Translations under genes and position numbers: made by a program | Assembly: GCA_044226485.1 (NCBI GenBank) | Contig: JBGAGY010000002.1 | Span: forward strand, 336,176-400,175 | From: Anaerolineales bacterium | Lineage (GTDB): Bacteria > Chloroflexota > Anaerolineae > Anaerolineales > UBA6663 | DNA length: 64,000 nucleotides | Direction: 5' to 3' | Notes under the pieces: model-generated | Databases searched by the model: none | What the model saw: only the letters and a program-made list of their open reading frames with translations | What the model was told of the DNA's origin: nothing | In this document: one piece after another, positions 8,783 to 24,366 of the stretch | Numbering within the stretch: position 1 is the stretch's first letter | Layout of the letters: every line of letters begins with the position of its first letter

Positions 8783-9238
8783 TCAGTCGCGCACTTCAAC
8801 GATCAACTCGACCTCGACTGCGTAGTTGTAGGGGATGGTCATGCCGACGGCGCTGCGCGCATGCCGGCCGGCTTCACCAAAGACTTCGAGCAGCAGATCG
8901 CTGCAGCCATGGATCACGTCAGGCGTCGCGTCGAAGTCGGGCGCCACGTTGACCATGCCGAGGACCTTGACGACGCGCACCATGTTGTCGAGCGAGCCGG
9001 TCAGGCTCTTGACGGCACGCAGGGCCGCGACCGTCGCCAAACGGGCAGCTTTGTAACCGTCCTCGATGGAGAGATCGCGCCCGACCTTGCCTTTGATCTC
9101 TTCACCCGCCCAAGAGCTGACGGCCCCGGCTGTGTAGACCAGGTTGCCCGTGCGCACTGCGCGCATAAAACGCCCGCTGTTGAGATCCCCGACGTCGACG
9201 CTGTAGCCCAGTTCGGTGAGTTTGGCTTCGTAGGTCAT
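8783..9238 (-). CDS. RidA/YjgF family protein
   Basis: RVVKVLGMVN, GCSDLL, GRHARSAVG, VEVELIVEV; ATG 9238 lies 6 nt after TAGAAT. Confidence 0.9.
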   Translation of the reverse strand: MTYEAKLTELGYSVDVGDLNSGRFMRAVRTGNLVYTAGAVSSWAGEEIKGKVGRDLSIEDGYKAARLATVAALRAVKSLTGSLDNMVRVVKVLGMVNVAPDFDATPDVIHGCSDLLLEVFGEAGRHARSAVGMTIPYNYAVEVELIVEVRD

Positions 9239-9302
9239 GGCCACATTCTATCGGCAAATCACCGAACATGACCGCGATTGAGGAAGGATCAGAATAAGGT
9301 CA

Positions 9303-9399
9303 GCCGCGGATTTCGCGGATTTCGCAAAACGTTGTGATGATCAACCCTATTGACGTTGACTCAACAATCATCATCTGCGAAATCCGCGAAATCCGCGGC
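9303..9399. repeat. Nonamer-type inverted-repeat element
   Basis: GCCGCGGATTTCGCGGATTTCGCA (9303-9326) and its perfect reverse complement (9376-9399) around a 49-nt AT-richer spacer. Confidence 0.9.
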
Positions 9400-9417
9400 C
9401 AAGAAAAGCCGCCGGTG

Positions 9418-11064
9418 CTACCGCAGCGACAGGCCCATGTGATCCGAGGCCTCAGCGCTGTCGCTGACGTTGAGCGACTCCTGATGCCAGAAGGCGGCGC
9501 CGGTCGCGGTCAGGCCGAGGCTGGTTCCATAGATCACGTTTGCGCCTCCGGCATTGTCCGCGGCGTTGATCTGTTCACCCGGCACGCCCACGACGAGATC
9601 GGCGAAGCCATTGCCATCGTAGTCGCCGCCGGTGAGCGCGATCCCGAAGTCGTCGGCGACTTCGGCGGTGCTGCCGATGTTGTCCTGGAACCAGCGGTTG
9701 TCGTTAGCGCTGCTCAGGCTGCCCGGCCCGCCATAGAGCACGTTCACCTCGCCGACGTTGCTGAGGGCCGTGTCCTCGCCAGGCACGCCGACGGCAAGAT
9801 CGTCGTAGCCGTCAGCGTTGAAGTCGGAGCTGTGCAGGCTGTAGCCGAAGAGGTCGTTGGCCTCGGCCACGCCGTCGAGATTGTCCTGGCCTTGCAGCCA
9901 GAGCTGGTTCTGGGAGGCGGTCAGCCCGGCCGCCGAACCGCGAATCACATGAACGGCCCCAACCGACGCGGTGGCTCCGCTGGCTTCGTTGGGCACGCCG
10001 ACGGCCAGGTCGTTGCGGCCGTCATGTTCGAAGTCGCCGATGGCAAGCGCGTAACCGAAGTGGTCGCTCGCCTCAGGGACTCCCTGCACGCCCGGCGTGT
10101 CCTGCGACCAGAGCTGGTTGTTGGTTGAAGAGAGCCCACTGGCTGAGCCGTACAACACGTTCACGGCCCCCGCGTCCGTCGCGGCCGCCGTGTCGTCTTG
10201 TGGGACGCCGATGGCCAGATCGTCGTAGCCGTTGCCATCGAGGTCGCCCGCCGCCAGGACGTAGCCGAAGCGGTCGTCTTCGACGGGTTCGCCCAGGACC
10301 TGGTCGGAATCCTGCGTCCAGATCTGGCTGCCGGCCGACGTCAGGCCTTGTGCCGAGCCGTAAAGCACATTGACGGCGCCGGCCGACGCGGCGCTGCCCA
10401 CCGCCTCGAACGGCGCGCCGATGGCGAGATCGGCGAAGCCGTCGCCGTTGAAGTCCCCGACGATCAAGGTGTAGCCGAAGCCGTCTCCGGCTTCTTCGAC
10501 TCCGGGCACGTCGGGAGACGCCTGGGTCCAGATGTCGTGGTTGGTCGCGACGAGGCCCGACGGCGACCCGTCGAAGACCCACACGCCGCCGGCTCCGGCG
10601 AACGTGCCGACGGTCTTCCCGGGCGCGCCGACGGCGAGGTCGGTGTAGCCGTCGCCGTTGAAGTCGCCGGCGCCGAGGCCGAGCCCGAATTCATCACCGG
10701 CATCCGGTACACCCAGGACGTTTGTTGTATCGAGGCTCCAGGCGTCGTTCGCATCGGGATAGAGCCCCGAAGGCGTGCCGTGCATGAGGTGCACCATGCC
10801 GGCATTGGTCTGCCCGGCAAGGTCTTCATCGGGCACACCGATGGCGAGATCTTCGTAGCCGTCGCCGTTGAAGTCGACGTTGATCGTTGTCGCGCAACCC
10901 GGCGCGATCCCGGCCGCACCCCCAACGCCGCTGACCGCGTTCTGCAGCGAAGGAAAGTACAGGTGGTAAGCGCAGTTGCCGGTCTGAGCCTCTGCCCGCA
11001 ATGGGGACAAGGCCACCAGCATCACCACAGCCAGACGGGTCAAGCGTGAAAGTCTTCCTGACAT
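9418..11064 (-). CDS. Secreted FG-GAP repeat (integrin alpha-like beta-propeller) protein
   Basis: Signal peptide ending AEA|Q; seven DFNGDGYxDLAIGxP...AGxV..xYG repeats; GGAGGA RBS. Confidence 0.9.
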   Translation of the reverse strand: MSGRLSRLTRLAVVMLVALSPLRAEAQTGNCAYHLYFPSLQNAVSGVGGAAGIAPGCATTINVDFNGDGYEDLAIGVPDEDLAGQTNAGMVHLMHGTPSGLYPDANDAWSLDTTNVLGVPDAGDEFGLGLGAGDFNGDGYTDLAVGAPGKTVGTFAGAGGVWVFDGSPSGLVATNHDIWTQASPDVPGVEEAGDGFGYTLIVGDFNGDGFADLAIGAPFEAVGSAASAGAVNVLYGSAQGLTSAGSQIWTQDSDQVLGEPVEDDRFGYVLAAGDLDGNGYDDLAIGVPQDDTAAATDAGAVNVLYGSASGLSSTNNQLWSQDTPGVQGVPEASDHFGYALAIGDFEHDGRNDLAVGVPNEASGATASVGAVHVIRGSAAGLTASQNQLWLQGQDNLDGVAEANDLFGYSLHSSDFNADGYDDLAVGVPGEDTALSNVGEVNVLYGGPGSLSSANDNRWFQDNIGSTAEVADDFGIALTGGDYDGNGFADLVVGVPGEQINAADNAGGANVIYGTSLGLTATGAAFWHQESLNVSDSAEASDHMGLSLR

Positions 11065-11128
11065 GATTCATCCTCCATCGCGGACAGGGCATGCCCTGCC
11101 CGCCTCATGACGCTGCGACCACCGCACA

Positions 11129-11583
11129 TCACCGGATGACCTCGCCCATGTAGTCGCTGTACTCGGCCTGGTCTCCCACGCCGGGCGAGTCTTGAGTCCA
11201 CAGGCTGACCCCGGTCGCGATGAGGCCACCCGGTGATCCCGGGACCACGACAAATCCTCCGGCAGCGATCTGCTCAGCGACGGTGATCCCCGGTATGCCG
11301 ATCGCAAGCTCGGCCATGCCATCGCCGTCATAGTCGCGGTCAGTGCCGCGCCGAAGCCCAGATCCTGATAACCATCGCCGTTGAAGTCGACGTCGCCCGG
11401 TGCCGCACAGCCCGGCGACATGCCGGGCGGGGTGTTGCCGGAGACCGGGCCGTTGAGCACGGTCGGCAGCCGCAGGCGAAAGGCGCAGCGGCCGGCCGCC
11501 GGCGACGCAGGCGCGAACGACAGCGGCAGACCCATCGTCGCGTGGAGGGAGGAGCGTGGGAGAGATGGAAATGCGCATGTCAT
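11129..11583 (-). pseudogene. Internally deleted, frameshifted paralog of the FG-GAP protein
   Basis: Frame from 11583 gives CAFRLRLPTVLN...PGCAAPGDVDFNGDGYQDL (matches the N-terminus of the neighbour); a second frame gives DYDGDGMAELAIGIPG...DYMGEVIR-stop (matches its C-terminus); shift near 11336. Confidence 0.85.
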
Positions 11584-11798
11584 GTCGTGTCGTCGATCGG
11601 CAGGTCTGGCGCGTCGTCGCCGCCCGTCTCCGCCCTGAGGAACGCCACAAGGCGATCAAGGCTGGCGAAGTGGAACTCGGCTCCGGTCAGCACAAGACGC
11701 ACCGTCGCGCGCCATGACGCCGACGGATCGGCGCGCCAGAGCCGCAGGACATAGAGGCGCACGACACCCGGATGGGCCAGCTTGCCGCTTTCACTCAT
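11580..11798 (-). CDS. Small (72 aa) hypothetical protein, LYVLRLW...WRA...TG...F.SL..L..FL type
   Basis: ATG 11798; TGA overlaps the next ATG (ATGA 11583-11580); compact beta-beta-beta-alpha-like pattern. Confidence 0.75.
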   Translation of the reverse strand: MSESGKLAHPGVVRLYVLRLWRADPSASWRATVRLVLTGAEFHFASLDRLVAFLRAETGGDDAPDLPIDDTT

Positions 11799-11838
11799 GT
11801 TGGATACGCTTGAACGATGACGGAGCTTGGCAGACGCG

Positions 11839-11856
11839 CGTCCCCAAATCGTCCCC
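11839..11856 (-). promoter_or_regulatory. Candidate SARP-type binding site (heptamer direct repeat, 11-bp period)
   Basis: CGTCCCC-aaat-CGTCCCC in the 78-bp divergent spacer; on the minus strand a -10-like CAAGCT begins 9 nt downstream. Confidence 0.6.
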
Positions 11857-11876
11857 GACGGCGCGTTCACTAATCG

Positions 11877-14800
11877 ATGAGCGACATCGAGCTTCTGCTC
11901 CTTGGCCCGTTTCAGGCCACTGTGGACGGCGAACCCGCCCGGTTTCGCTCCGACAAAGTGCGGGCCCTGCTCGCCTATCTCGCGCTGTCACCCGATCAAC
12001 CTCATCGACGCGAGACGCTGGCGGCGCTGCTCTGGCCCGACATGCCCGACAGCGTCGCGCACAACAACCTGCGCAAGTCCCTCCACCGACTCAAAGAAAG
12101 CCTGGGCGATGGCGGCGCCGAGTCGCTGTTGACGATCGATCGTCAATCCGTGCAGTTCAACGACGGCGTCGCGCGTGTCGACGCCACGCTGTTATCGAGG
12201 CGCGTCGCGGCCTGCGAGTCGCATGCGCATCGGCATCTGCACACCTGTCAGGAGTGCCTCGATCGCTTGATGGAGGCGCAGGCGCTCTATCGGGGCGAAT
12301 TGCTGGCCGGCTTCGCGGTTTCCGATTCGATCGGCTTCGAAGAATGGCTGGCCCTTCAACGCGAGAGGCTGCAGCAGCGGGTCTTGTTGGCGCTGTACAA
12401 CCTTGCCGAGGCGTACTCAGAGCGCGGCGAGTCGGCGTCGGCCGCCCGATTTGCGGCGCGTCAGATCGAGATCGAACCCTGGCGCGAAGAGGCGCATCGA
12501 CAGTTGATGCGCGCGCTCGCCGCAGACGGTCGACGAAGCGAGGCGCTCGCGCAATTCGATCTCTGTCGGCGCGCGCTGGCCGACGCGTTCGGCGTCGAGC
12601 CGGCACCTGAGACGACCTCGCTCTACGAAGCTCTGCAGCGCGAAGCCGGCGCTCAGCCCGAGCCGTCGAGTTCGATGCGCGGCTTCCCGATGACGTTGAC
12701 GCCACTGATCGGGCGCGCGACGGAGTCGGCCCACATCGTCGAGCGGTTGCTCGATCCAGACTGTCGGTTGCTGACCCTCACCGGGCCCGGCGGCATCGGC
12801 AAAACACGCCTGGCGTTGCACACGGCGCAGACACTGGCAAGCCGGTCGCGTTTCGCTGACGGCATCGTCTTCGTGTCGGTCGAATCGATGTCCGCGCTGG
12901 CGGAGTTGCAGGCCGCGCTCGCCCAGACGTTCCAGCTTCGATTTCACGAAGACGCGGCGCTCAGTTCCCAACTCGCGGAGCACCTGCGCGACAAACAGGT
13001 GCTGCTCGTGCTCGACGGCTTCGAATCGCTTGCCTCTGAAGCGGGGGCGTTAGCGGAGTGGTTGTCGATCGCCTCAAGGCTGAAGCTGCTTGTCACCTCG
13101 CGCGAGCGGCTCAACCTGCGCGCGGAATGGCTGCTGTCGATCGAGGGTCTCAGCGTGCCCGCCGCCGATGAGCAGCCCCGGCCGGCGGATCATGGCGCCG
13201 TCAGGCTCTTCCTCGAGCTTGCCGGGCGGATCCGGCCGGATTTCGCGCCAGGGCAAGCCGACCTCGACGCCATCCGCCGCGTCTGTCGGGCCGTTGAAGG
13301 GCTGCCGCTCGGGATCGAGCTCGCGGCGGCGTGGCTGAGACACACCACTCCGGCCGCCATCGCCGACCTCATCGAGCGCAGCCCCGGTGATCTCGAGACG
13401 CCCTTGCGTGACATGCCGGCGCGCCATCTCAGCCTGCGCGCCGTCTTCGAACACTCATGGGAACGGCTCGCCGAGCCAGAACGGCAACGGCTGGCGCGCC
13501 TCGCAGTGGTGCGCGGCGCGTTCGACGTCGAAGTCGCTCAGGCCGTCGGCGACGCCAACCGCGCCTGTCTGAGCGCCCTGATCGACAAGTCGCTGCTGCA
13601 ACACACGCCGGATGGCCGCGTGCGCATGCACGAACAACTGCGTCAGTTCGCGCTTGAGAAGCCCGAGGCCGTTGCGGGTTTCGCCAGTCATGGCGGGTAT
13701 TTCCTCGCGCGTGTCGCGCAGGTAGGCCCGGCCTTCTTTGGCCCCGATCCGCGGCAGGCAGCGGCCACGCTGGCGGGCGATCTCGACAACGTGCGCCAGG
13801 CCTGGCGTTGGGCGTTGGCTCACGATCGGACCGAGATCGTGCGCGAAGCTGTCGAGGGCCTGGCTGCGTATTACCTCTTCGCCGGGCTACTCGGCGAAGG
13901 CGAAAGCGCGTTTGAGTTCGACGAAGATCTGGCAGACCGTCATCCGCAGCTTGCCGCCGAGCTTCTGGCCCGCCGCGCCGACTTCGCCAGCCGGGTGGGG
14001 CGATTGCCCGAGGCTCAAGCGCACGTCAGACGTGCCGTGGCGCTCGATCCTGCCAACGTGTTTGCCTGCATCATGCGCGGCCGCGTGCTCGAACTGCAGG
14101 GTCGTCATGCTGAGGCGCTGGTCACGCTCGAGGAGGCCTGCGCGCTGGCGCTGACCTCGGGAGCCAGTCGACTGACGGCCCTGGCTTTGAATCGCCTGGC
14201 CAACGTGCACTGGCGCATGGGGGCCTATCCGGCTGCGATCAAGCGATTCCAGCAGGCTTTGCAGCTCGATCGCGACCTGGGGCACAAGGTCGGCCAGGCC
14301 ATGCACCTGGGCAATCTCGGGATCGTGCTGCGCGAGCAAAGCGAATACGCGCGCGCCGAGACGTGTCTGCAACAGGCGCTCGACATCGACCAGGCGCTCG
14401 GCAACGACCTGGGCACCGCCCGGCACCTCAACAACCTCGGCCTCGTGCGCTGGCAGACGGGTCGGCGCGCCGAAGCACTCGACTGCTATCGACAGGCCCT
14501 GGCGATCGCCGAGCGCCTGGGGCATGCCCGCGGCATCGCATCCTGCATCAGCAACATCGGCATCCTCCACCGCGAGCGTGGCGAATATGTTCAGGCGATC
14601 CAGGCCTATGAACGCGCTCTGCAGCTGGCGCGTAACGCGGGCGCGCGGGCGAACATCAGCAACAACCTCAAGAACCTGGGCAACACCTATCGCGAGATTG
14701 GCGACTACGCTCAGGCGCGGCGCTACTACGATGAAGCCCAGGTGATGGATGTCGAGGACGGCAATACTGAAGGGCTGGCTCGCCTCTGGGGCTATGTCGC

Positions 14801-15275
14801 GACGCTCAGCGCTGAGACCAGCGACCTGGCTTCCGCGCGCACACTCTTCGAGCGCGGTGTGGGAGCACTGCGTGAACTCGGCGCCCGCTACTATCTGGCC
14901 TGGCAGCTCGTCGACCTGGCGGATGTGTGTCTGAGCCTGGGCGACACCCCGGCCGCGCTCTCGTTCGCGCGCGAGGGCGAAGAGGTGGCGCGAGCGGCGG
15001 GTCGCGACGATTACGCCGTGCGCGCTCGCGCGATCACGGCCCGAGCCCTGCATGCCGATGGACGGACTGAGGAGGCCTGCGCGCTGCTGGTGCCCCGTCT
15101 GTCAGACGCCAGCGAGTTGGAGCGGGCCGTGCTTCATGAAGCGTTGTGGCAGATCAACGGAAAAGAGACACACGCCTCAGCGGCGCTCGAAGCCTACGAA
15201 GCGCTGACGACGCAGACACCGAGCGCTCACAATCGCGCGCGTGTCGACGTGCTGCGTCGCGCGCTGGGCCGTTAG
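11877..15275 (+). CDS. SARP/AfsR-like regulator: wHTH + BTAD + STAND (NB-ARC-like) ATPase + TPR
   Basis: [34 protein letters not shown] (BTAD), Walker [34 protein letters not shown], several C-terminal TPRs. Confidence 0.93.
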
Positions 15276-16654
15276 GCGGCGGCCGCCATCGCGGCCCACG
15301 CGCGCTCCACGTCGGCCGTTGTCGTGCGCCAGTTCGAGAAAGCGGCCCGAACGGCCGGACGGCCGGCGTAAGTGGTGGGCGTCAGGAAGACCTCGCCTCC
15401 CGCTCGCACACGAGCCAGGAAGTCCGCCACGCGCTCCGCAGGCGCGTCTCCGGCAAGCGTGAAGCAAACGACGTTCAACCGCACTGGAGCGAGCAACTCA
15501 AAGCCCGAAGACTTCTCGAAATGCGCGCCGAGGTCGCGCGCCAGGTCGCAGCAGCGCTCGACGATGTCGCGATAGCCGTCTGCGCCGTAGGCCCGCAGCG
15601 TGAACCAGGCCGGCAGGGCGCGCCAGCGCCGTGAGTTTTCGGGCGTGAGGTGCAGGGCGTCGGGGTCGTCGCCGAGCGCGCCGAGATAGGCCGCGCTGTT
15701 CTGAAAGACCTGGGCCTGAAGATCGCGATGGCGCGTGAACTGCATGGCGCTGTCATAGGGGACGTTGAGCCACTTGTGGGCGTCGACGCAGAGCGAATCG
15801 GCAGCGTCGATCCCGGCCACCAGGTGAGCGTGCTCGGGCGAGCAGGCCGCGAAACCGCCGAAGGCCGCGTCGACGTGCAGCCAGAAGCCGTAGCGTTCAC
15901 GCAGTGAGACGATGGCCTGCAGGTCATCGAAGTCGCCGGTGTTGACCGTGCCGGCGTTGGCCACGACGATCGCGGGCTGGCCGTCGAGCGCCGCCAGGCG
16001 TTGTTCGAGCGCGTTCACGTCGATGCTTTCGCGGCCGGGCAGGGCCGGCACCGGGCGCAGGGCGTCGCGGCCCAGGCCCAGGATGCTCAGGGCCTTGTAG
16101 ACGGACGAATGCGCGACGGCGCTCAACACCGGCGTGGGCGGCAAGGCGCCGACGCCCCGTGCGGCCACGTCGATGCCGAGTCGAGCGCCGACCCACTGGC
16201 GCGCGATCGCGAGGCCGACGAGGTTGCTTTGCGTGGCGCCGGAGACGAAGAGACCGTTATGCGCGTCTGAGAGACCGAACAGGGTCCGCAGCATTGCGAT
16301 GGCCTCGCGCTCGACCCGGACGGTGGCGGGCTCGGTCTTGCCGGTGGCGTTCTGATCGTAGGCTGCGGCGAGCCAGTCGCCGAGCAAGGCGGCGGGCGTG
16401 CTCCCGCCGGTGACGAACCCCCAGTAGCGCGGGCCGGCGCTGCCGGTCAGCCCGGCGGCGAAGCGCTCTCGAAATTCGAGCAGCGCGGCGCGTGCGCCGA
16501 CGCCGACAGTGTCGATTCCCTGTGGATCATCGAGCTGTGTGGCGCGACCCGCTGGATGCTGCGCCAGGCCAGTCAGGTGGCTGGCCGCCGCGTCGCGGGC
16601 GATGGAGAGCAGGTCATCCATGGTGGATAGATCGATCGCCAGTTGTGGATGCAT
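15272..16654 (-). CDS. Group II PLP-dependent (aromatic amino acid/glutamate) decarboxylase family
   Basis: [32 protein letters not shown]; start 16654 or 16621. Confidence 0.9.
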
Positions 16655-16710
16655 CGATGGTTTCACTCTTGTATCGCAACAGGGCCGATCGATCGGCCGC
16701 GCTGGCAGCC

Positions 16711-17091
16711 TCAGCCCACGCCGTCGAACGCGGTAGCCAGGAAGTCGAGGATGCTGACGATCAGGGCGACAACCGCCACTGTCAGACCCGACACCTGCAG
16801 CAGGATGGGCCACAATTGTGTCTTCGCGCGGGTCGCCCAGCGCCACAAGGCCCACGCCGCGCCCACAACGGCCGCCAGGCCGCCGACCGCCATGGCCGCC
16901 GACGTCACCGTGGGCACGTCAAGCCCGGCATGGATCCCGAGCGTGTCCACCAGGATGCGCGGCACGTGCACGGCCGGCACCGAGGCAAAGAGGTCGTAGA
17001 CGCCCTCATAGAACAATCCGCCTGCGATCACCAGGACGCTGACGTAAGCCAGCGGGAGCAGCCAGCGCCGCGCCATATCGAATAGTCGCAT
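16711..17091 (-). CDS. Small membrane protein (3 TM)
   Basis: Three hydrophobic segments; GGAG upstream. Confidence 0.55.
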
Positions 17092-21320: not shown

Positions 21321-22376
21321 CTACTCGTCAAGCGGGCTGCGAACGCCGCGTGGCCCACGATTGAGGACGTGCGTGTAGATCATGGTCGTCTTCACGTCTT
21401 TGTGGCCGAGCAGCTCCTGCACGGTGCGGATGTCGTAGCCGTTCTCGAGCAAGTGCGTGGCAAAGGAATGCCGCAGCGTGTGACAGCCGACGCGCTTCTC
21501 GATGCCGGCCTTCTGCGCCGCGGACTTGACCGCTCGCTGCAGCAGCGTTTCGTCGTAGTGGTGCCTGCGAAGTTTGCCTGTGCGCGGATCGGGCGCGATG
21601 CGCTTGGCCGGGAACAGGTATTGCCAGATCCACTCGCGACCCGCGTTCGGGTGCTTGCGCTCCAGGGCGAAGGGCAGATAGACGTCGCCCAGCCCCAAGG
21701 CCAGATCCTGCGCGTGCAAGACCTTGACGTCGCTGAGATGCTCGCGCAGCGGCTCGATCAGACCCGTTGGCAGCATCGTAAGCCGATCCTTCATGCCCTT
21801 GCCGTCGCGCACGATGATCTGCCGCTGGGCGAAGTCGATGTCCTTCACGCGTAGCCGCAGGCATTCGAGCAGGCGCAAGCCGCTGCCATACAGGATCTGG
21901 GCCATCAGGTGCTGCACACCGTGCAGTTGCTCCATCAGGGCCCGCACCTCTGCTCGCGTCAGCACTGTCGGCAGGCGTTCCGGCGCCTTAGCGCGGATCG
22001 GCTGGATCTCGCCTTCAAGATCCTGATACAAGACATGTCGATAGAGAAAGACCAGGGCGTTGAGCGCCTGGTTCTGAGTCGAGGCTGCGACGTTCCCGCT
22101 CACGGCGAGGTGTGACAGAAACGCATTGATCTCTGGGACGCCAAGTTCGCTCGGATGACGTTTTCCATTGAACAGGATGAAGCGTCGGGTCCAGTCGCAG
22201 TATGAGTCTTCGGTGCGGATCGAATAGTGGCGCGTGCGGGTCGCAGCGCGGACCCGATCGAGCAGGCGGATCGGGGGCGAACTTTCGGCCCCGGGGCCAG
22301 GTTCCTCACGTAGAGGCCGCCAGGCGCGATGGGCATTGGCATCAGGCCAGGATAACCCTGTTGAGACGCCCTCCAT
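21321..22376 (-). CDS. intI: Integron integrase (tyrosine recombinase)
   Basis: [38 protein letters not shown], integron-specific insertion [46 protein letters not shown]; GGGAGGA RBS. Confidence 0.97.
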
Positions 22377-22429
22377 ATTGTCCTCCCGTCAAAAATAACA
22401 GAAGTGCGTTTGTGATGGGGGTCTATCTG

Positions 22430-22460
22430 AGTATAGCACATATGTTCTTTGCGTTGAAAA
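22430..22460 (-). promoter_or_regulatory. Candidate intI promoter with LexA-like box
   Basis: Minus strand TTCAAC-17 nt-TATACT; AGCACATATGTTCT (22435-22448) is one mismatch from AGAAC-N4-GTTCT. Confidence 0.65.
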
Positions 22461-22464
22461 GCTG

Positions 22465-22491
22465 TGAGTTTGTTGTCGATCTGAGTTATGC
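22465..22491 (+). mobile_element. Candidate attI site
   Basis: GTTATGC core at 22485-22491 at the end of the AT-richer region upstream of intI; TGAGTT repeated at 22465 and 22482. Confidence 0.5.
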
Positions 22492-22569
22492 TGGCTCCAG
22501 AGTCCTCCATTCGAAGCATATCCGGCCGATCACAGAAGGGGCGTAATCCCTGGTGAGTTTGGAGACGCT

Positions 22570-24366
22570 GTGAACGTGTTGAACGACGAGTGGGTGCCGG
22601 ATAAATCTCCTGGAAACGGCGCGAGTGATCGGGCCAGATCTGTCGATGCCGCATGGAGCACGACGGACCCGATGTCGCCCGAACTTGACGCCGTCCTGCG
22701 TGAGATCACCGACCCGGGCGCTAGGGTGGATCACCTCAACGACCTTGCCTGGGAGGGCCGCCTCGACGACAGCCAACGTTCGGCGCGCCTGGCCAGGGTG
22801 GCGTACGAATGGTCGATGTCAGGCGACTTTGAAGCGACGCCGTATAACCTGGGCATCGCGTCAAGCCTGCGCACTCAGGCCTTTCTTCATAACGACGTCG
22901 GCAACTACACAGAAGCGCTGACCGCTTCGCTGAGGAGCCTCGACCTCCTTGGAGACACGGCCAACATCCAGCCAGAGAACGGGCCGATCGTCATCGATGT
23001 CCTCGGCAACATCAGCTGGACCCATCGTTGCTACGGCGACTATGCGGTGGCCGCTGAATATGGCATGAAGGCCCTGGGCCTGGCCGAAGAGCGCGGTGAT
23101 CGATTGCGCCAGGCCAGGTTGTTGAACATCCTCGGCAACATCTATGCCGATTCGAATGACCTCGAGGCCGCGTTGCAGATGGGTGAACGTGCCCTCCGGC
23201 TGTACCGAGACCTCGACCTGCGAGATGGCGAGAGCGTCGCGTTGAACAACCTGGCCCTGACGTATCTCGAGTTGGGCCACAGCGAAAAAGCTCTCGACGC
23301 CTGTCGCGAGAGCCTGCGCATCGCGCAGGAAGGCGGTTTCGCGTCTGTCCATCTGACCGCCTTGAGCACGCTGGGTGAGCTCTATCTGGGCATCAAGGAC
23401 TTCGGGCAGGCAGAGGCCTGCCTGAACCTGGCCCTCTCGTTGTCGCGCGAACGCGGGGCTCGCTACGATGAGTTCCTGAACCTTTTGAATCTGGGCAAGG
23501 TCGCGCTTGGCCGGCAAGACGCCGCTCGTGCCACCCTCCAATTCGAGGAGGCCCTGGCGCTGGCTCAGAGCTTGAACCATCGTGTCGGGCAATTCCAATG
23601 CCACGAATTCCTCGCCGATCTGCACGAGCATGACGGCAGACTCGCAGACGCCCTGAATAGCTACAAGGCCTTTCATACGCTCAAGGAGACCGTCTTCAAT
23701 GAGAACGCCAACAAGCGTCTCGCCGGTCTGCGCGTCATTCATCAAGTGGAAACGGCGCGACGTGACAGTGAGATCAGCTATCTGCGCACGATCGAATTGA
23801 AGAAAGAGATCGAAGAGCGCAAGGCCGCGCAGACAGCCCTTGAGAAACTGGCGAGCCTCGATCCGCTCACCGGGCTGTTGAATCGGCGCCAGATCCATCA
23901 TCTCGGCGAACTCGAAGTGCAACGATCCGGCTCGAACAGACAGTCGCTCACCGTGATCCTGTTCGATATCGATTTCTTCAAGACCGTCAACGACACCTAC
24001 GGCCACGCGGTTGGCGATGCCGCGCTCGTGCACATCGCCCAGGTCGTTCGACAGAGTCTGCGCGAGGGCGAGTTGATCGGCCGATACGGCGGCGACGAGT
24101 TCGTGATCCTCCTGCCGGGCAGCAACTGCGATAAGGGGCGCCAGATCGCCGAGCGCCTGCGCGCCAACCTCGCCCGTCAGCCGCTCAATCACCCGAAGGG
24201 GAAAGTCGCGTTGACGCTGAGCCTGGGTATCGCCGAGTTCGTCGATGGAGCTGTGGCGAGCCTTGACGACCTCCTGGTCCACGCCGATCAGGCGTTGTAT
24301 GCCGCCAAACTAGCCGGGCGCGATCGGCTTGTGGCGCATTCGGAGCTGGCGCCCAGGCGGCCATGA
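22570..24366 (+). CDS. TPR-repeat diguanylate cyclase
   Basis: TPRs, coiled coil, DPLTGLLNRR, DIDFFKTVNDTYGHAVGD, intact GGDEF; exact start uncertain. Confidence 0.92.
   Translation: MNVLNDEWVPDKSPGNGASDRARSVDAAWSTTDPMSPELDAVLREITDPGARVDHLNDLAWEGRLDDSQRSARLARVAYEWSMSGDFEATPYNLGIASSLRTQAFLHNDVGNYTEALTASLRSLDLLGDTANIQPENGPIVIDVLGNISWTHRCYGDYAVAAEYGMKALGLAEERGDRLRQARLLNILGNIYADSNDLEAALQMGERALRLYRDLDLRDGESVALNNLALTYLELGHSEKALDACRESLRIAQEGGFASVHLTALSTLGELYLGIKDFGQAEACLNLALSLSRERGARYDEFLNLLNLGKVALGRQDAARATLQFEEALALAQSLNHRVGQFQCHEFLADLHEHDGRLADALNSYKAFHTLKETVFNENANKRLAGLRVIHQVETARRDSEISYLRTIELKKEIEERKAAQTALEKLASLDPLTGLLNRRQIHHLGELEVQRSGSNRQSLTVILFDIDFFKTVNDTYGHAVGDAALVHIAQVVRQSLREGELIGRYGGDEFVILLPGSNCDKGRQIAERLRANLARQPLNHPKGKVALTLSLGIAEFVDGAVASLDDLLVHADQALYAAKLAGRDRLVAHSELAPRRP

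Follow-up and report, generated by a model that had tools for sequence, protein, structure and literature searches.

Gene content and layout

The window, by which we mean the whole stretch of 64,000 nucleotides that was analysed, contains a gene for a SARP-type regulator that is divergent from a run of three genes, namely a small ORF, a degraded FG-GAP copy and an intact FG-GAP protein (Table 1). An earlier sequence-only reading had described this arrangement, together with a 78-bp spacer holding CGTCCCC-N4-CGTCCCC; the ORF list, the translations and Pfam bear out the gene order in every detail, and the repeat is found at 11839-11856. The three genes are tightly packed, with the ATG of the 171-aa ORF overlapping the stop of the 72-aa ORF (ATGA) and the 548-aa ORF starting 3 nt past the 171-aa stop. 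No biosynthetic genes were found flanking the cassette.

Table 1. Features of the regulator-small gene locus (positions in the window)
Feature	Coordinates	Strand	Basis
SARP-type regulator, 1132 aa	11877..15275	+	ORF list, translation, Pfam
Divergent spacer, 78 bp, regulator ATG to small-ORF ATG	11799..11876	.	sequence
Distal heptamer GGGGACG of the SARP-type box (operon strand)	11850..11856	-	sequence; comparative
Proximal heptamer GGGGACG, 11 bp downstream of distal	11839..11845	-	sequence; comparative
Candidate -10 hexamer CAAGCT, 9 nt after proximal heptamer	11824..11829	-	sequence; comparative
72-aa small protein, operon gene 1 (ATG 11798)	11580..11798	-	ORF list, translation
Degraded FG-GAP copy (pseudogene), 171-aa ORF	11068..11583	-	translation, Pfam, self-comparison
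Intact secreted 548-aa FG-GAP (integrin-alpha-like) beta-propeller	9418..11064	-	translation, Pfam

The regulator

The regulator has the domain order of a large SARP, with intact Walker motifs: an OmpR-type winged helix (residues ~26-83), a BTAD (102-253), an NB-ARC/NACHT-type STAND ATPase (~285-410) and a TPR sensor region (~695-1040+). Walker A reads G303-x4-G308-K309-T310 and Walker B ends in D380, and these residues are invariant in an alignment of the regulators of 26 neighbours. Pfam matches were obtained for BTAD (1.1e-26), NB-ARC (1.2e-8), NACHT (9.4e-9) and many TPR families (TPR_12, 8.3e-41), with a weak match to Trans_reg_C (E 1.1e-4, 22.7 bits, under the 26.2 cut-off). The NCBIfam AfsR model scores 123.8 bits, its cut-off being 1430 bits. 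Among models of anti-phage STAND proteins, none matched except a generic TPR model.

The box and candidate promoter

The sequence CGTCCCCAAATCGTCCCC (11839-11856, + strand) is the sole match in the window. On the operon strand it reads GGGGACG-ATTT-GGGGACG, followed by 9 nt and then CAAGCT (11829-11824). There is a single exact copy of the box in the 6.58-Mb genome, which would count toward a dedicated target. When the window was shuffled, 6 of 100 shuffles contained at least one match at ≤1 mismatch (mean 0.07); by itself, therefore, the repeat is modestly unusual and weakly significant, and its significance comes from the comparative data rather than from the window alone.

A sigma-70 consensus promoter was sought in 9200-12000 and none was found, which fits an activator-dependent promoter. 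As a -10, CAAGCT is poor, and it lies 9 bp from the box instead of 8. Transcription would probably start near 11817, giving a leader of ~19 nt. The RNA-library contig X19 (423 nt, 0 differences) spans 11454-11876, that is, the whole spacer, and so counts against such a start; the contig may derive from carried-over DNA or from a longer transcript, and neither ends nor strand can be read from contigs.

A large family of small proteins

No Pfam or NCBIfam family model matches the 72-aa ORF, which belongs to a family of 3605 cluster representatives. The protein consists of a beta-beta-beta-alpha core (residues ~12-58) and an acidic low-complexity tail, and its predicted structure has a mean pLDDT of 81.8 (89-97 over residues 11-60). 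R19, W21 and W29 are invariant across 73 family members, dN/dS is 0.09-0.50 in 13 small-ORF pairs, and DNA from another study shows one difference in the ORF, at position 11658, which is synonymous. Because of this selection, the confident fold, the invariant residues and the synonymous difference, the small ORF is regarded as a real gene. The family is large and has no name, and it supplies the new conserved first gene of the cassette described here.

A hydrophobic window is present in just 10 of 135 small proteins. Genomes carry up to 16 copies with near-identical cores, the core being nearly the same among paralogs within one genome. One paralog in the genome of the window faces an HTH_31-NB-ARC-TPR gene, not a SARP gene, and in 32 longer proteins the domain is fused ahead of cargo-type domains.

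Linkage of the small gene to SARP regulators

Linkage was assessed in two samples, 41 related genomes (68 ORFs) and a broader scan (83 ORFs, 80 named loci). The profile search returned 69 family copies in 26 of the 41 related genomes, and a second profile confirmed the copies of this first sample (68 ORFs). Over both samples, 76 of 151 copies lie head-to-head with, and ≤400 nt from, a SARP (wHTH-BTAD)-STAND-TPR gene, and a further 13/151 lie directly downstream of a SARP gene. The first sample contributes 30/68 head-to-head copies within 400 nt and all of the directly downstream ones (13/68), and 12/68 have no SARP gene within ±6 kb. In the broader scan, 46 of the 83 ORFs face a SARP gene head-to-head at ≤400 nt, and another 10 do so at ≤1500 nt; 15/83 are without a SARP gene in the flanks examined, and some loci of this kind are cut by contig ends. 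The start-to-start distance is 54-184 nt in 27 pairs. The background is low, with 254 BTAD matches in ~190 Mb (41 genomes). Just 43 of these 254 have a small ORF within 400 nt, so that most SARPs work without one.

The sequence-only reading had suggested an association in Chloroflexota between BTAD regulators and microproteins of the pattern LRLW..WR..F.SL..L..FL; the association is real and strong. The homologs are present and non-randomly placed and, as set out below, the repeat is conserved, the opposite of those computable outcomes that the same reading had named as speaking against it.

Phasing of the repeat across loci

Perfect direct repeats (≥6 nt) with a period of 11 were found in 37 of 62 divergent spacers (≤220 nt). 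In the same spacers, period 22 occurs in 13 and each other period from 5 to 30 in 0-6, and mononucleotide shuffles gave 1.38 ± 1.19 (maximum 5). Counted within 150 nt upstream of the small ORF, the period-11 repeat precedes 45/76 head-to-head copies, 6/12 copies directly downstream of a SARP gene and 12/22 copies without a nearby SARP gene, compared with 34 of 363 other genes, a control set that still includes regulators sharing those spacers. A TAnnnT hexamer follows the repeat by 6-10 nt in 40 of 70 loci. Under the published SARP rule, as given in PMC10936776, the spacing between repeats is 11 or 22 bp, and 8 bp separate the 3' repeat from the -10; judged by sequence, the family spacers match this geometry. 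An 11-bp-phased repeat just upstream of a -10-like hexamer, proposed earlier for the window, is thus conserved in the family spacers.

In several loci (e.g., L036, L037, L044, L141, L146, L150 and L164) the proximal repeat ends 21-24 nt before the ATG, which implies leaderless or near-leaderless mRNAs. One might therefore regard the small ORF as a cis-acting leader that loads ribosomes on a short-leader or leaderless mRNA, its peptide being functionless, and close coupling to the next gene is indeed common. We consider this very improbable: purifying selection on the protein (the dN/dS values above), residues invariant across 73 diverse members, a family of thousands of clusters and a confidently predicted fold would be unexpected for a mere ribosome-loading ORF.

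Downstream cargo

The 548-aa protein matches FG-GAP in 7 stretches (Pfam, 1.8e-63) and has a hydrophobic, signal-like N-terminus. The 171-aa ORF is a true remnant of such a gene that keeps the N-terminal part and the last blade, has lost an internal part and changes frame near 11345-11350: the segment 11350-11547 aligns at 41% identity with residues 11-76 of the 548-aa protein and, after the frame change, 11132-11344 matches the last blade, residues 478-548 (46%). DNA contigs from another study carry the 171-aa ORF with no indel and 7 differences in 516 nt.

A related FG-GAP gene turned up at 2 of the 68 other loci in the first set and at 0 of 80 in the second, and the propeller is local cargo only. 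Cargo families across the loci include FG-GAP, PD40 and DUF5122 propellers, Chlam_PMP/beta-helix, Calx-beta, cytochromes c, solute-binding proteins and cupredoxin; cytoplasmic proteins (methyltransferases, globin, SnoaL, WHD-AAA ATPases) are found as well. A hydrophobic segment at the N-terminus is encoded by the first downstream gene in 38/51 and 51/58 cases (two sets), compared with 112/379 and 117/326 of other genes in the same loci. The expectation that the targets would be exported proteins rather than biosynthetic clusters therefore holds for most loci.

With this enrichment in mind, the small protein could assist the cargo from the cytoplasm, helping with its folding, targeting or assembly, in stoichiometric amounts set by translational coupling. 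The stop of the small ORF overlaps or almost touches the next start in many loci (≤60 nt in 34 of 57 gaps), and the domain is also found fused at the N-terminus of cargo-type domains. The cargo families are, however, mutually unrelated, and some are cytoplasmic (methyltransferases, globin and AAA ATPases), a poor fit to the export chaperone suggested earlier; moreover, the immediate neighbour of the small gene in the window is a dead gene, it may be the regulators, and not the small protein, that account for the excess of exported cargo, and a swap of cargo leaves the small gene beside regulator and box. A helper role is accordingly judged improbable, though better placed than the leader-ORF explanation.

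Conserved unit and exchanged cargo

The behaviour of the closest loci is instructive. L041 and L043 have the small proteins (56% identity) and SARP domains (57%) nearest to those of the window. Together with L040 they keep the box in the form GGGGACG-N4-(G/T)GGAACG, followed by 9 nt and a hexamer; the distal heptamer is GGGGACG, the proximal one GGGAACG or TGGAACG, and the hexamer GATCAT (L040 and L043) or CATCAT (L041). The box is thus kept where regulators and small proteins are most similar to those of the window. The cargo of these loci consists of secreted proteins other than FG-GAP, and the propeller, which had been proposed as part of the module, no longer has a place in it.

More generally, pairs of loci with at least 60% winged-helix identity agree at 9.15 of 13 box positions and pairs below that level at 6.0-6.8 of 13, and winged-helix and box similarity are correlated (Mantel r 0.21, p 0.0055). 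The box appears to follow the adjacent regulator, though correlations among small protein, regulator and box would also arise from plain co-inheritance of adjacent DNA. On these comparisons the 72-aa protein is part of the regulatory unit and not of the cargo: it is passed on as a set with regulator and box, and it is the genes downstream that are swapped.

Proposed mechanism

The computed results cover the anatomy of the genes, the family to which the small protein belongs, its linkage to regulators, and the phasing and conservation of the repeat box; on these results the locus is probably a self-contained SARP-box regulatory cassette outside Actinobacteria, with a conserved small first gene. 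In the model that we infer, which extends to DNA binding, to where transcription starts and to whatever the small protein does, the sensor/ATPase switch of the 1132-aa activator would release the SARP domain (winged helix and BTAD), which would bind the two GGGGACG heptamers, one helical turn apart, as a side-by-side dimer. The box would stand in for a -35 element, 9 bp upstream of the weak -10 CAAGCT, so that the bound activator would recruit RNA polymerase. The transcript, from ~11817, would carry the 72-aa protein, then the dead FG-GAP remnant and then the secreted seven-bladed propeller.

What the small protein does is a more tentative matter. The likeliest single role, to which we would still give less than even chances, is that it acts back on transcription from SARP-box promoters as a feedback or relay component, using its invariant Arg/Trp beta-sheet face on a conserved partner, either the cognate STAND regulator or polymerase. 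The closest precedent, by analogy, is AfsS, made under AfsR control. Against a partnership with the regulator stand the small share of BTAD matches that have a small ORF close by (43 of 254), the 12/68 and 15/83 copies without a nearby SARP gene, and the paralog that faces an HTH_31-NB-ARC-TPR gene. With near-identical paralog cores, a paralog-specific partner would have to read the variable tail, and the 32 fusions ahead of cargo-type domains point to the cargo, not the regulator.

Those fusions also bear on the idea that the small protein is a second-tier trans-acting regulator, e.g., a new beta3-alpha nucleic-acid-binding domain for other loci. The domain heads fusions with the small-molecule-binding CBS, SnoaL/NTF2 and ABM domains, much as a DNA-binding head does in a one-component regulator, and occupies the N-terminal, effector-type position of STAND NTPase-WD40 proteins (P0186, P0180 and P0182); the three-stranded sheet with one helix, the invariant Arg/Trp residues (R19, W21, W29 and R30) and the lack of a hydrophobic export signal would suit such a role. 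AfsS itself is described in PMC10972967 as a small protein that is produced under the control of AfsR and acts in an unknown way. The fusion partners are, however, the same families as the separate downstream cargo, so that the fusions may be plain read-through of neighbouring genes, and up to 16 near-identical cores per genome are hard to square with distinct DNA targets. Nor does the domain show detectable kinship to beta3-alpha DNA-binding domains already described: no copy is matched by the Pfam AP2 model, hhalign against three bacterial AP2-like proteins gives a probability of 0.24%, and the best PDB fold matches reach Z ≤3.5 (Foldseek E ≥0.38). We regard a second-tier role, in which the protein would act as AfsS relays AfsR and would not feed back on its own regulator, as unlikely, though it stands somewhat above the cargo helper.

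Comparison with known systems

The cassette, with a feedback or relay component as the preferred reading of its small gene, is analogous to AfsR-afsS of Streptomyces coelicolor. As described in PMC10936776 and PMC10972967, that system has the same order of SARP domain, NOD/NB-ARC and TPR, two direct repeats one helical turn apart at the -35 with a weak -10, and as its immediate target an adjacent small-protein gene of unknown mechanism; 13/68 of our copies are in afsR-afsS order, with the small gene directly downstream. The window regulator is nevertheless not an AfsR equivalog (123.8 against a 1430-bit cut-off), head-to-head is the usual arrangement for the small-gene family, the small gene opens an operon with cargo instead of standing alone, a genome can have several cassettes (up to 16 copies), and the named relatives are Chloroflexota, not Actinobacteria. 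A review describes SARPs as exclusive to actinobacteria (PMC10972967).

Cluster-situated SARPs (ActII-ORF4, DnrI and RedD; among large ones, PolY and RslR3) are likewise reported to use heptameric repeats in 11-bp phase beside the -10 and to lie next to their targets (PMC10972967, PMC10936776). They control antibiotic biosynthetic clusters, whereas the targets here are single, mostly exported proteins of many families.

STAND ATPases with TPR-like sensors (MalT, NLR-like) share the series of effector domain, NB-ARC/NACHT-type ATPase and TPR sensor, although the output of the window regulator is transcription, not cell death. In AfsR, the NOD and TPR domains are reported to inhibit the SARP domain until ATP binds (PMC10936776). 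RRNPP quorum-sensing pairs, as presented in PMC10075063, also set a TPR-bearing transcription factor beside a small gene that could encode specificity in its variable C-terminal part; here, in contrast, the conserved core of the small proteins is folded and they lack an export signal, and the receptor bears a SARP head and a STAND ATPase. Finally, the 548-aa cargo resembles bacterial FG-GAP (integrin-alpha-like) beta-propellers in its seven repeats and signal-like N-terminus, but in this family of loci it appears as local cargo alone (2/68 and 0/80 other loci).

Organization of the locus

The layout described in the sequence-only reading, a long regulator gene divergent from a minus-strand operon of three genes, agrees exactly with the ORF list and the translations (see the table). 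At the N-terminus of the regulator one finds a BTAD domain (Pfam E 1.1e-26, residues 102-253) together with a weak OmpR-type winged helix (Trans_reg_C, E 1.1e-4; 22.7 bits, under the cut-off of 26.2), and the centre and C-terminus hold NB-ARC (1.2e-8), NACHT (9.4e-9), and a long TPR region with TPR_12 (8.3e-41). In the translation both Walker motifs are intact, A as G303-x4-G308-K309-T310 and B with D380, and among 26 related regulators in an alignment G303, G306, G308, T310, and D380 are invariant, with K309 nearly so. By this predicted domain order, the protein is a "large SARP," where SARP domain denotes the winged helix plus BTAD. The NCBIfam AfsR model covers residues 6-594 with 123.8 bits against a cut-off of 1430, and by that score the regulator is not an AfsR equivalog.

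Coordinates of the features discussed. Positions refer to the window unless a contig of the same genome is named.
Feature	Position	Strand	Length	Remarks
Large regulator	11877-15275	+	1132 aa	ORF list, translation, Pfam
Small ORF	11798-11580	-	72 aa	ORF list, translation
Remnant ORF	11583-11068	-	171 aa	ATG overlaps the stop of the 72-aa ORF as ATGA
FG-GAP propeller ORF	11064-9418	-	548 aa	ORF list, Pfam
Spacer between regulator and small ORF	11799-11876		78 bp	
Box GGGGACG-ATTT-GGGGACG	11856-11839	- (operon strand)		direct repeat, period 11
-10-like hexamer CAAGCT	11829-11824	- (operon strand)		9 nt past the box; 25 nt before the ATG
Box at related locus L040				GGGGACG-ATTT-GGGAACG, 9 nt, GATCAT
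Box at related locus L041				GGGGACG-ATTT-TGGAACG, 9 nt, CATCAT
Box at related locus L043				GGGGACG-TTAT-GGGAACG, 9 nt, GATCAT
PLP-dependent decarboxylase gene	15272-16855	-		convergent; its end overlaps the regulator stop-codon region by 4 nt (15272-15275)
Tyrosine recombinase gene	21321-22376	-		Phage_integrase and SAM-like N-terminal domain
Lowest-GC stretch of the window	22001-24000			GC 0.59
TPR-GGDEF protein	22570-24366	+		
Second complete cassette (L036)	contig 12, 114956-115189		75 aa	small-family member
Third family member (L038)	contig 8, 220038-220223			opposite an HTH_31 gene
Fourth arrangement (L092)	contig 8, 150023-160			co-directional

The genes flanking the locus are ordinary (RidA-like, PLP decarboxylase, and DnaE). 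Further along the window, a tyrosine recombinase gene adjoins the lowest-GC stretch and a TPR-GGDEF protein is encoded; no tRNA genes were found within the window. An integrated element may have its edge at 21321-24366.

The 548-aa protein carries seven FG-GAP stretches (PF01839, 1.8e-63) and a signal-like N-terminus, and the 171-aa ORF carries one sub-threshold FG-GAP stretch. Within the latter, 11350-11547 aligns to propeller residues 11-76 and, after a change of frame, 11132-11344 aligns to residues 478-548, the last blade; since only the N-terminal part and the last blade are matched, most of its blades are deleted. Judged by sequence, the 171-aa ORF is a dead, broken copy of the propeller gene. 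DNA contigs from another study differ from the remnant at 7 positions in 516 nt with no indel, from the propeller gene at 5 in 1647, and from the small ORF by one synonymous change.

Linkage of the small gene to SARP regulators

The sequence-only reading had placed similar microproteins beside BTAD regulators in Chloroflexota, and this link proved sound in two samples. A profile search of the window's genome and 40 relatives gave 69 copies in 26 genomes, or 68 loci (±6 kb taken) because two matches in one genome share a locus; a second profile (135 representatives) confirmed all of these copies as 68 ORFs. When neighbours are classed with a SARP-domain profile, 30/68 small ORFs stand head-to-head with a SARP gene at most 400 nt away and 13/68 lie directly downstream of one, which is the afsR-afsS order; a further 13/68 have a SARP gene that is more distant or otherwise oriented, and 12/68 have none in ±6 kb. 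In 27 head-to-head pairs the two start codons are 54-184 nt apart, mostly 70-97. The same 41 genomes hold 254 BTAD matches, so chance adjacency is negligible, yet most SARP genes have no small-gene neighbour. The second sample, 80 named loci with 83 ORFs, has 46 head-to-head within 400 nt, 10 more within 1500 nt, and 15/83 with no SARP gene nearby.

Co-directional regulators are either BTAD-AAA_16-TPR proteins or short SARPs of 309-315 aa. The partner need not be a SARP: in the window's own genome, a third family member (L038) lies opposite an 879-aa HTH_31 (XRE-type)-NB-ARC-TPR gene, so the small gene is linked to STAND-TPR regulators with more than one type of DNA-binding head.

Two other arrangements should be recorded from this genome. 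A second complete cassette (L036) has its small gene opposite a 1018-aa SARP-STAND-TPR gene, with a 77-bp spacer containing CTCTCGCA-N3-CTCTCGCA and a secreted Chlam_PMP-repeat protein downstream; 21 nt separate the end of the repeat from the ATG, suggesting that the mRNA has no leader, and the cassette is also present in a same-genus genome (L037). The fourth arrangement, found in four genomes (L092, L094, L097, and L099), is co-directional and consists of the small ORF, a di-haem-type cytochrome c (298-324 aa), a protein of ~520-540 aa, and a SARP-STAND-TPR gene.

The promoter box and its phasing

Taken alone, the box in the window is weak evidence, as 6/100 window shuffles yield a match at no more than one mismatch. 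Its exact form occurs once in the 6.58-Mb genome. Further targets of the regulator were sought, but only 3 genome sites at no more than one mismatch were found versus about 20 expected from composition, and a wider regulon was not seen. The predicted site fits the geometry of SARP targets, with period-11 repeats, then 9 nt, then a -10-like hexamer, and the operon transcript would be expected to begin near 11817 on the minus strand. Consensus scans of 9200-12000 detected neither a sigma-70 consensus promoter nor an intrinsic terminator; absence of the former is as expected for an activator-dependent promoter.

The phasing is much clearer across the family, where the predicted 11-bp-phased repeat upstream of a -10 is conserved. 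We counted exact direct repeats of at least 6 nt at periods 5-30 in 62 head-to-head spacers of up to 220 nt: period 11 is present in 37/62, period 22 in 13, and every other period in 0-6, and mononucleotide shuffles give 1.38 ± 1.19 at period 11 (maximum 5). The motifs vary by clade (GGGGACG, CTCTCGCA, TGAACG, TAAATG, TATCACG, CCCCACGTT, TTCACGC in four consecutive copies, and others), and the majority terminate in ACG on the small-gene strand. A repeat lies within 150 nt upstream of the small ORF in 45/76 head-to-head copies, 6/12 co-directional copies, 12/22 copies with no nearby SARP gene, and 7/33 others, as against 34/363 other genes in those loci, a control that still takes in regulators sharing the spacers. 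A TAnnnT hexamer follows 6-10 nt past the repeat in 40/70 loci, and this hexamer is often a good -10 (TATAAT, TAGAAT, and TATGAT).

In published SARP sites the direct repeats are spaced by 11 or 22 bp and the 3' repeat lies 8 bp from the -10 (PMC10936776). The AfsR box is 22 bp long, is made up of two 11-bp repeats, and overlaps the -35 in the promoter of afsS (PMC10936776, PMC10972967). As read from sequence, the family's promoter repeats have this published geometry. Box similarity also tracks the identity of the adjacent winged helix (Mantel r 0.21, p 0.0055, 37 loci): regulators whose winged helices are at least 60% identical share 9.15/13 box positions, compared with 6.0-6.8 for the rest.

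On the opposite strand, many spacers (for example L036, L042, L044, L045, L046, L061, and L068) have TATAAT or a near match about 20-35 nt before the regulator ATG. The regulator probably has its own promoter here, back-to-back with the SARP box.

Comparative evidence thus gives good support to the regulatory half of the sequence-only idea, and the reading of the locus as a SARP-box cassette, with AfsR-afsS as the closest known case, is well supported. The regulator very probably activates the operon through the two heptamers.

Metatranscriptome data should be set beside this model with care. A 423-nt contig with zero differences covers 11454-11876, taking in the small ORF, the entire spacer, and some of the remnant, and in a second run of the same study short contigs match the remnant, propeller gene, and regulator; such evidence consists of contigs, from which a transcription start is not readable and in which DNA carry-over is possible. 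The contig over the entire spacer is not a clean fit to the SARP-box model, and its source may be DNA carry-over or a longer RNA.

A constant core with exchanged cargo

The window's nearest small proteins (56% identity) and SARP domains (57%) are those of L041 and L043, and L040 is of the same type. All three loci preserve the box and the 9 nt between it and the -10-like hexamer, and the remaining spacer is unalignable. Their downstream genes encode other signal-bearing proteins, so the regulator, box, and small gene move as one unit while the genes behind the small ORF (the cargo) are exchanged. The FG-GAP propeller, which the sequence-only reading had made part of the module, is absent from these relatives and does not belong to its constant portion.

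The small ORF and the next gene are closely spaced, with gaps of at most 60 nt in 34/57 cases and at most 150 nt in 50/57, and several 4-nt overlaps (a hand count from the listed gaps). A Pfam scan of 56 first-downstream genes, from loci with a co-directional gene within 700 nt, returned propellers (FG-GAP, PD40, and DUF5122), Chlam_PMP and beta-helix repeats, Calx-beta, PKD, DUF11, and transglutaminase domains, along with many cytochromes c, solute-binding proteins, and cupredoxin. By a crude hydropathy test, in loci where a gene was called between -120 and +300 nt, 38/51 and 51/58 cargo proteins have a hydrophobic segment at the N-terminus, versus 112/379 and 117/326 other genes in the same loci. 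The exported downstream protein that had been expected is therefore the usual case, with cytoplasmic exceptions (methyltransferases, globin, SnoaL, BphX-like proteins, and WHD-AAA ATPases).

Thirty-two longer proteins join an N-terminal small-family domain, through a low-complexity linker, to cargo-type domains, and 3/32 have as partner a STAND NTPase, either with WD40 repeats or lacking them. We consider it quite unlikely that the small protein serves as a helper of the cargo.

The small-protein family

Searched with a profile, 1.84 billion representatives yielded 3605 proteins at E ≤1e-3, nearly all of 60-110 aa, with a few tandem duplicates. Their consensus is Y-x-x-Y-L-L-R-L-W-R, 4-9 residues, W-R-A-S-L-E-x-x-x-T-G-E-x-x-x-F-A-S-L-x-x-L-x-x-F-L, and then a tail. 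The family is patchy in the phylum, with matches at E ≤1e-5 in 42/301 sampled genomes (a tally that takes in the window's own genome and the unpublished genome G169), and frequent in the window's own family of genomes (19/22). Copy number reaches 16 matches in one genome (G054) and 8 in another of the same phylum (G205), which suggests large cassette expansion in some lineages. Named records, scanned with the pattern [ST][LV]E[DS][PAV][HR]TGER, are almost all Chloroflexota (Anaerolineae, Thermoflexales, Caldilineae, Ardenticatenaceae, and Chloroflexia), with single MAGs labelled Ignavibacteria, delta proteobacterium, Latescibacterota, and Armatimonadota; because the peptide pattern is narrow, this sample is biased towards consensus-like members.

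Comparison of 73 diverse members with Pfam and NCBIfam identified no family, only scattered weak matches in at most 4/73 members for any one model. The ESM Atlas returned "hypothetical protein" clusters, with Chloroflexota as the commonest phylum, and its named-cluster search gave no usable match. AlphaFold2, run with 73 sequences, predicts strands at 16-21, 30-35, and 41-44 and a helix at 47-57, with a mean pLDDT of 81.8 and values of 89-97 across residues 11-60. Known folds were sought with Foldseek against the PDB (best E 0.38), VIA-align wide (best Z 3.5), and a PDB sequence profile (one chance-level row, E 0.093), and none of the three gave a convincing likeness to a solved structure.

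The tails are of low complexity, with a median of 21 residues, and 81% of members have one with a net negative charge. Just 10/135 members contain a hydrophobic stretch (13-residue window, KD ≥1.9), so these proteins are cytoplasmic. Among 13 pairs of related ORFs dN/dS is 0.09-0.50. On sequence and structure prediction together, the small ORF is a real, folded protein, and the idea that it is purely a cis-acting leader ORF is highly improbable.

An Arg/Trp face (R19, W21, and W29) is invariant, and the core is alike among paralogs of one genome. The motif pattern may resemble that of AP2/ERF-type beta3-alpha DNA-binding domains. Zero small-family copies matched PF00847 (AP2) in 101 genomes, and hhalign of the small-family alignment against three bacterial AP2-like proteins gave a probability of 0.24%; AP2/ERF-like homology was dropped as a claim and kept as a remark on fold class. 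Fold searches gave Z no higher than 3.5. That the small protein is itself a trans-acting regulator we rate as unlikely.

A homotypic relation between small protein and regulator, in the style of HET-s/NWD2, was also rejected (hhalign of the two family alignments, probability 0.1%). Co-folding of regulator residues 263-1132 with the small protein scored 0.00, a value obtained without control runs and neutral on binding. A natural tandem-domain protein, used as a proxy for a dimer, gave pLDDT 72.3 and pTM 0.46, with no confident relative orientation of the domains.

A possible role for the small protein

Three features argue for placing the small protein in a regulatory unit with a common conserved partner, namely its co-inheritance with the regulator and box, the invariant R19, W21, and W29, and the core shared by paralogs of the same genome. 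The role that we favour, if tentatively, is feedback or relay on SARP-dependent transcription.

One version, which we regard as somewhat doubtful, would make the small beta3-alpha protein a new partner of STAND regulators that closes a feedback loop on its own NLR-like regulator or on RNA polymerase. Made first from the SARP-box promoter, it would bind back through the invariant Arg/Trp face of its sheet, with specificity coming from the variable acidic tail, and each cassette would switch a surface or periplasmic protein autonomously, possibly in a bistable manner. If this were true, Chloroflexota would possess a modular "plug-in promoter" system, reused for varied exported proteins.

Comparison with known systems

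Textbooks present SARP activators as regulators of antibiotic clusters. In Chloroflexota their DNA-recognition logic recurs in a portable cassette, present many times over and predicted to switch on mostly exported proteins, among them adhesin-like propellers, beta-helices, cytochromes c, and solute-binding proteins. The cassette gives an unannotated family its first functional context, each locus having a single regulator, box, and small gene, and the conserved boxes provide many natural regulator/operator pairs, apparently differing in specificity, that are possible genetic tools for a phylum abundant in the environment. How AfsS-like small proteins work has long been a gap, one that a second and much larger example may help to close.

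Several known systems should be compared with the locus. RRNPP propeptides are short and exported, whereas this family has a folded beta3-alpha core and rarely a hydrophobic window. As for anti-phage STAND proteins (Avs and bNACHT), a defence-system identity was considered and rejected: the regulator's only PADLOC match is PDLC01169, a generic TPR model (1e-17), and the small protein and propeller have none. The 548-aa protein qualifies, with its seven repeats, as a member of the FG-GAP beta-propeller class.

A literature search found no description of the small-protein family or of Chloroflexota SARP cassettes, its few terms making this weak evidence that they are unpublished. A 2024 review calls SARPs exclusive to actinobacteria (PMC10972967). 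Large SARPs of the AfsR type share with the regulator the SARP domain, an NB-ARC/NOD with Walker A/B, and TPRs, but they are actinobacterial and target secondary-metabolite clusters, whereas the hosts here are Chloroflexota almost throughout and the cargo is mostly exported. AfsR-AfsS itself has the gene order of the 13/68 directly downstream copies. The DNA-recognition logic and the theme of a large SARP plus an adjacent small gene are thus already known; what is new is the small-protein family, the systematic occurrence of its members as the first gene after a SARP box, a cassette portable enough to stand ahead of unrelated, mostly exported proteins, and the Chloroflexota setting.
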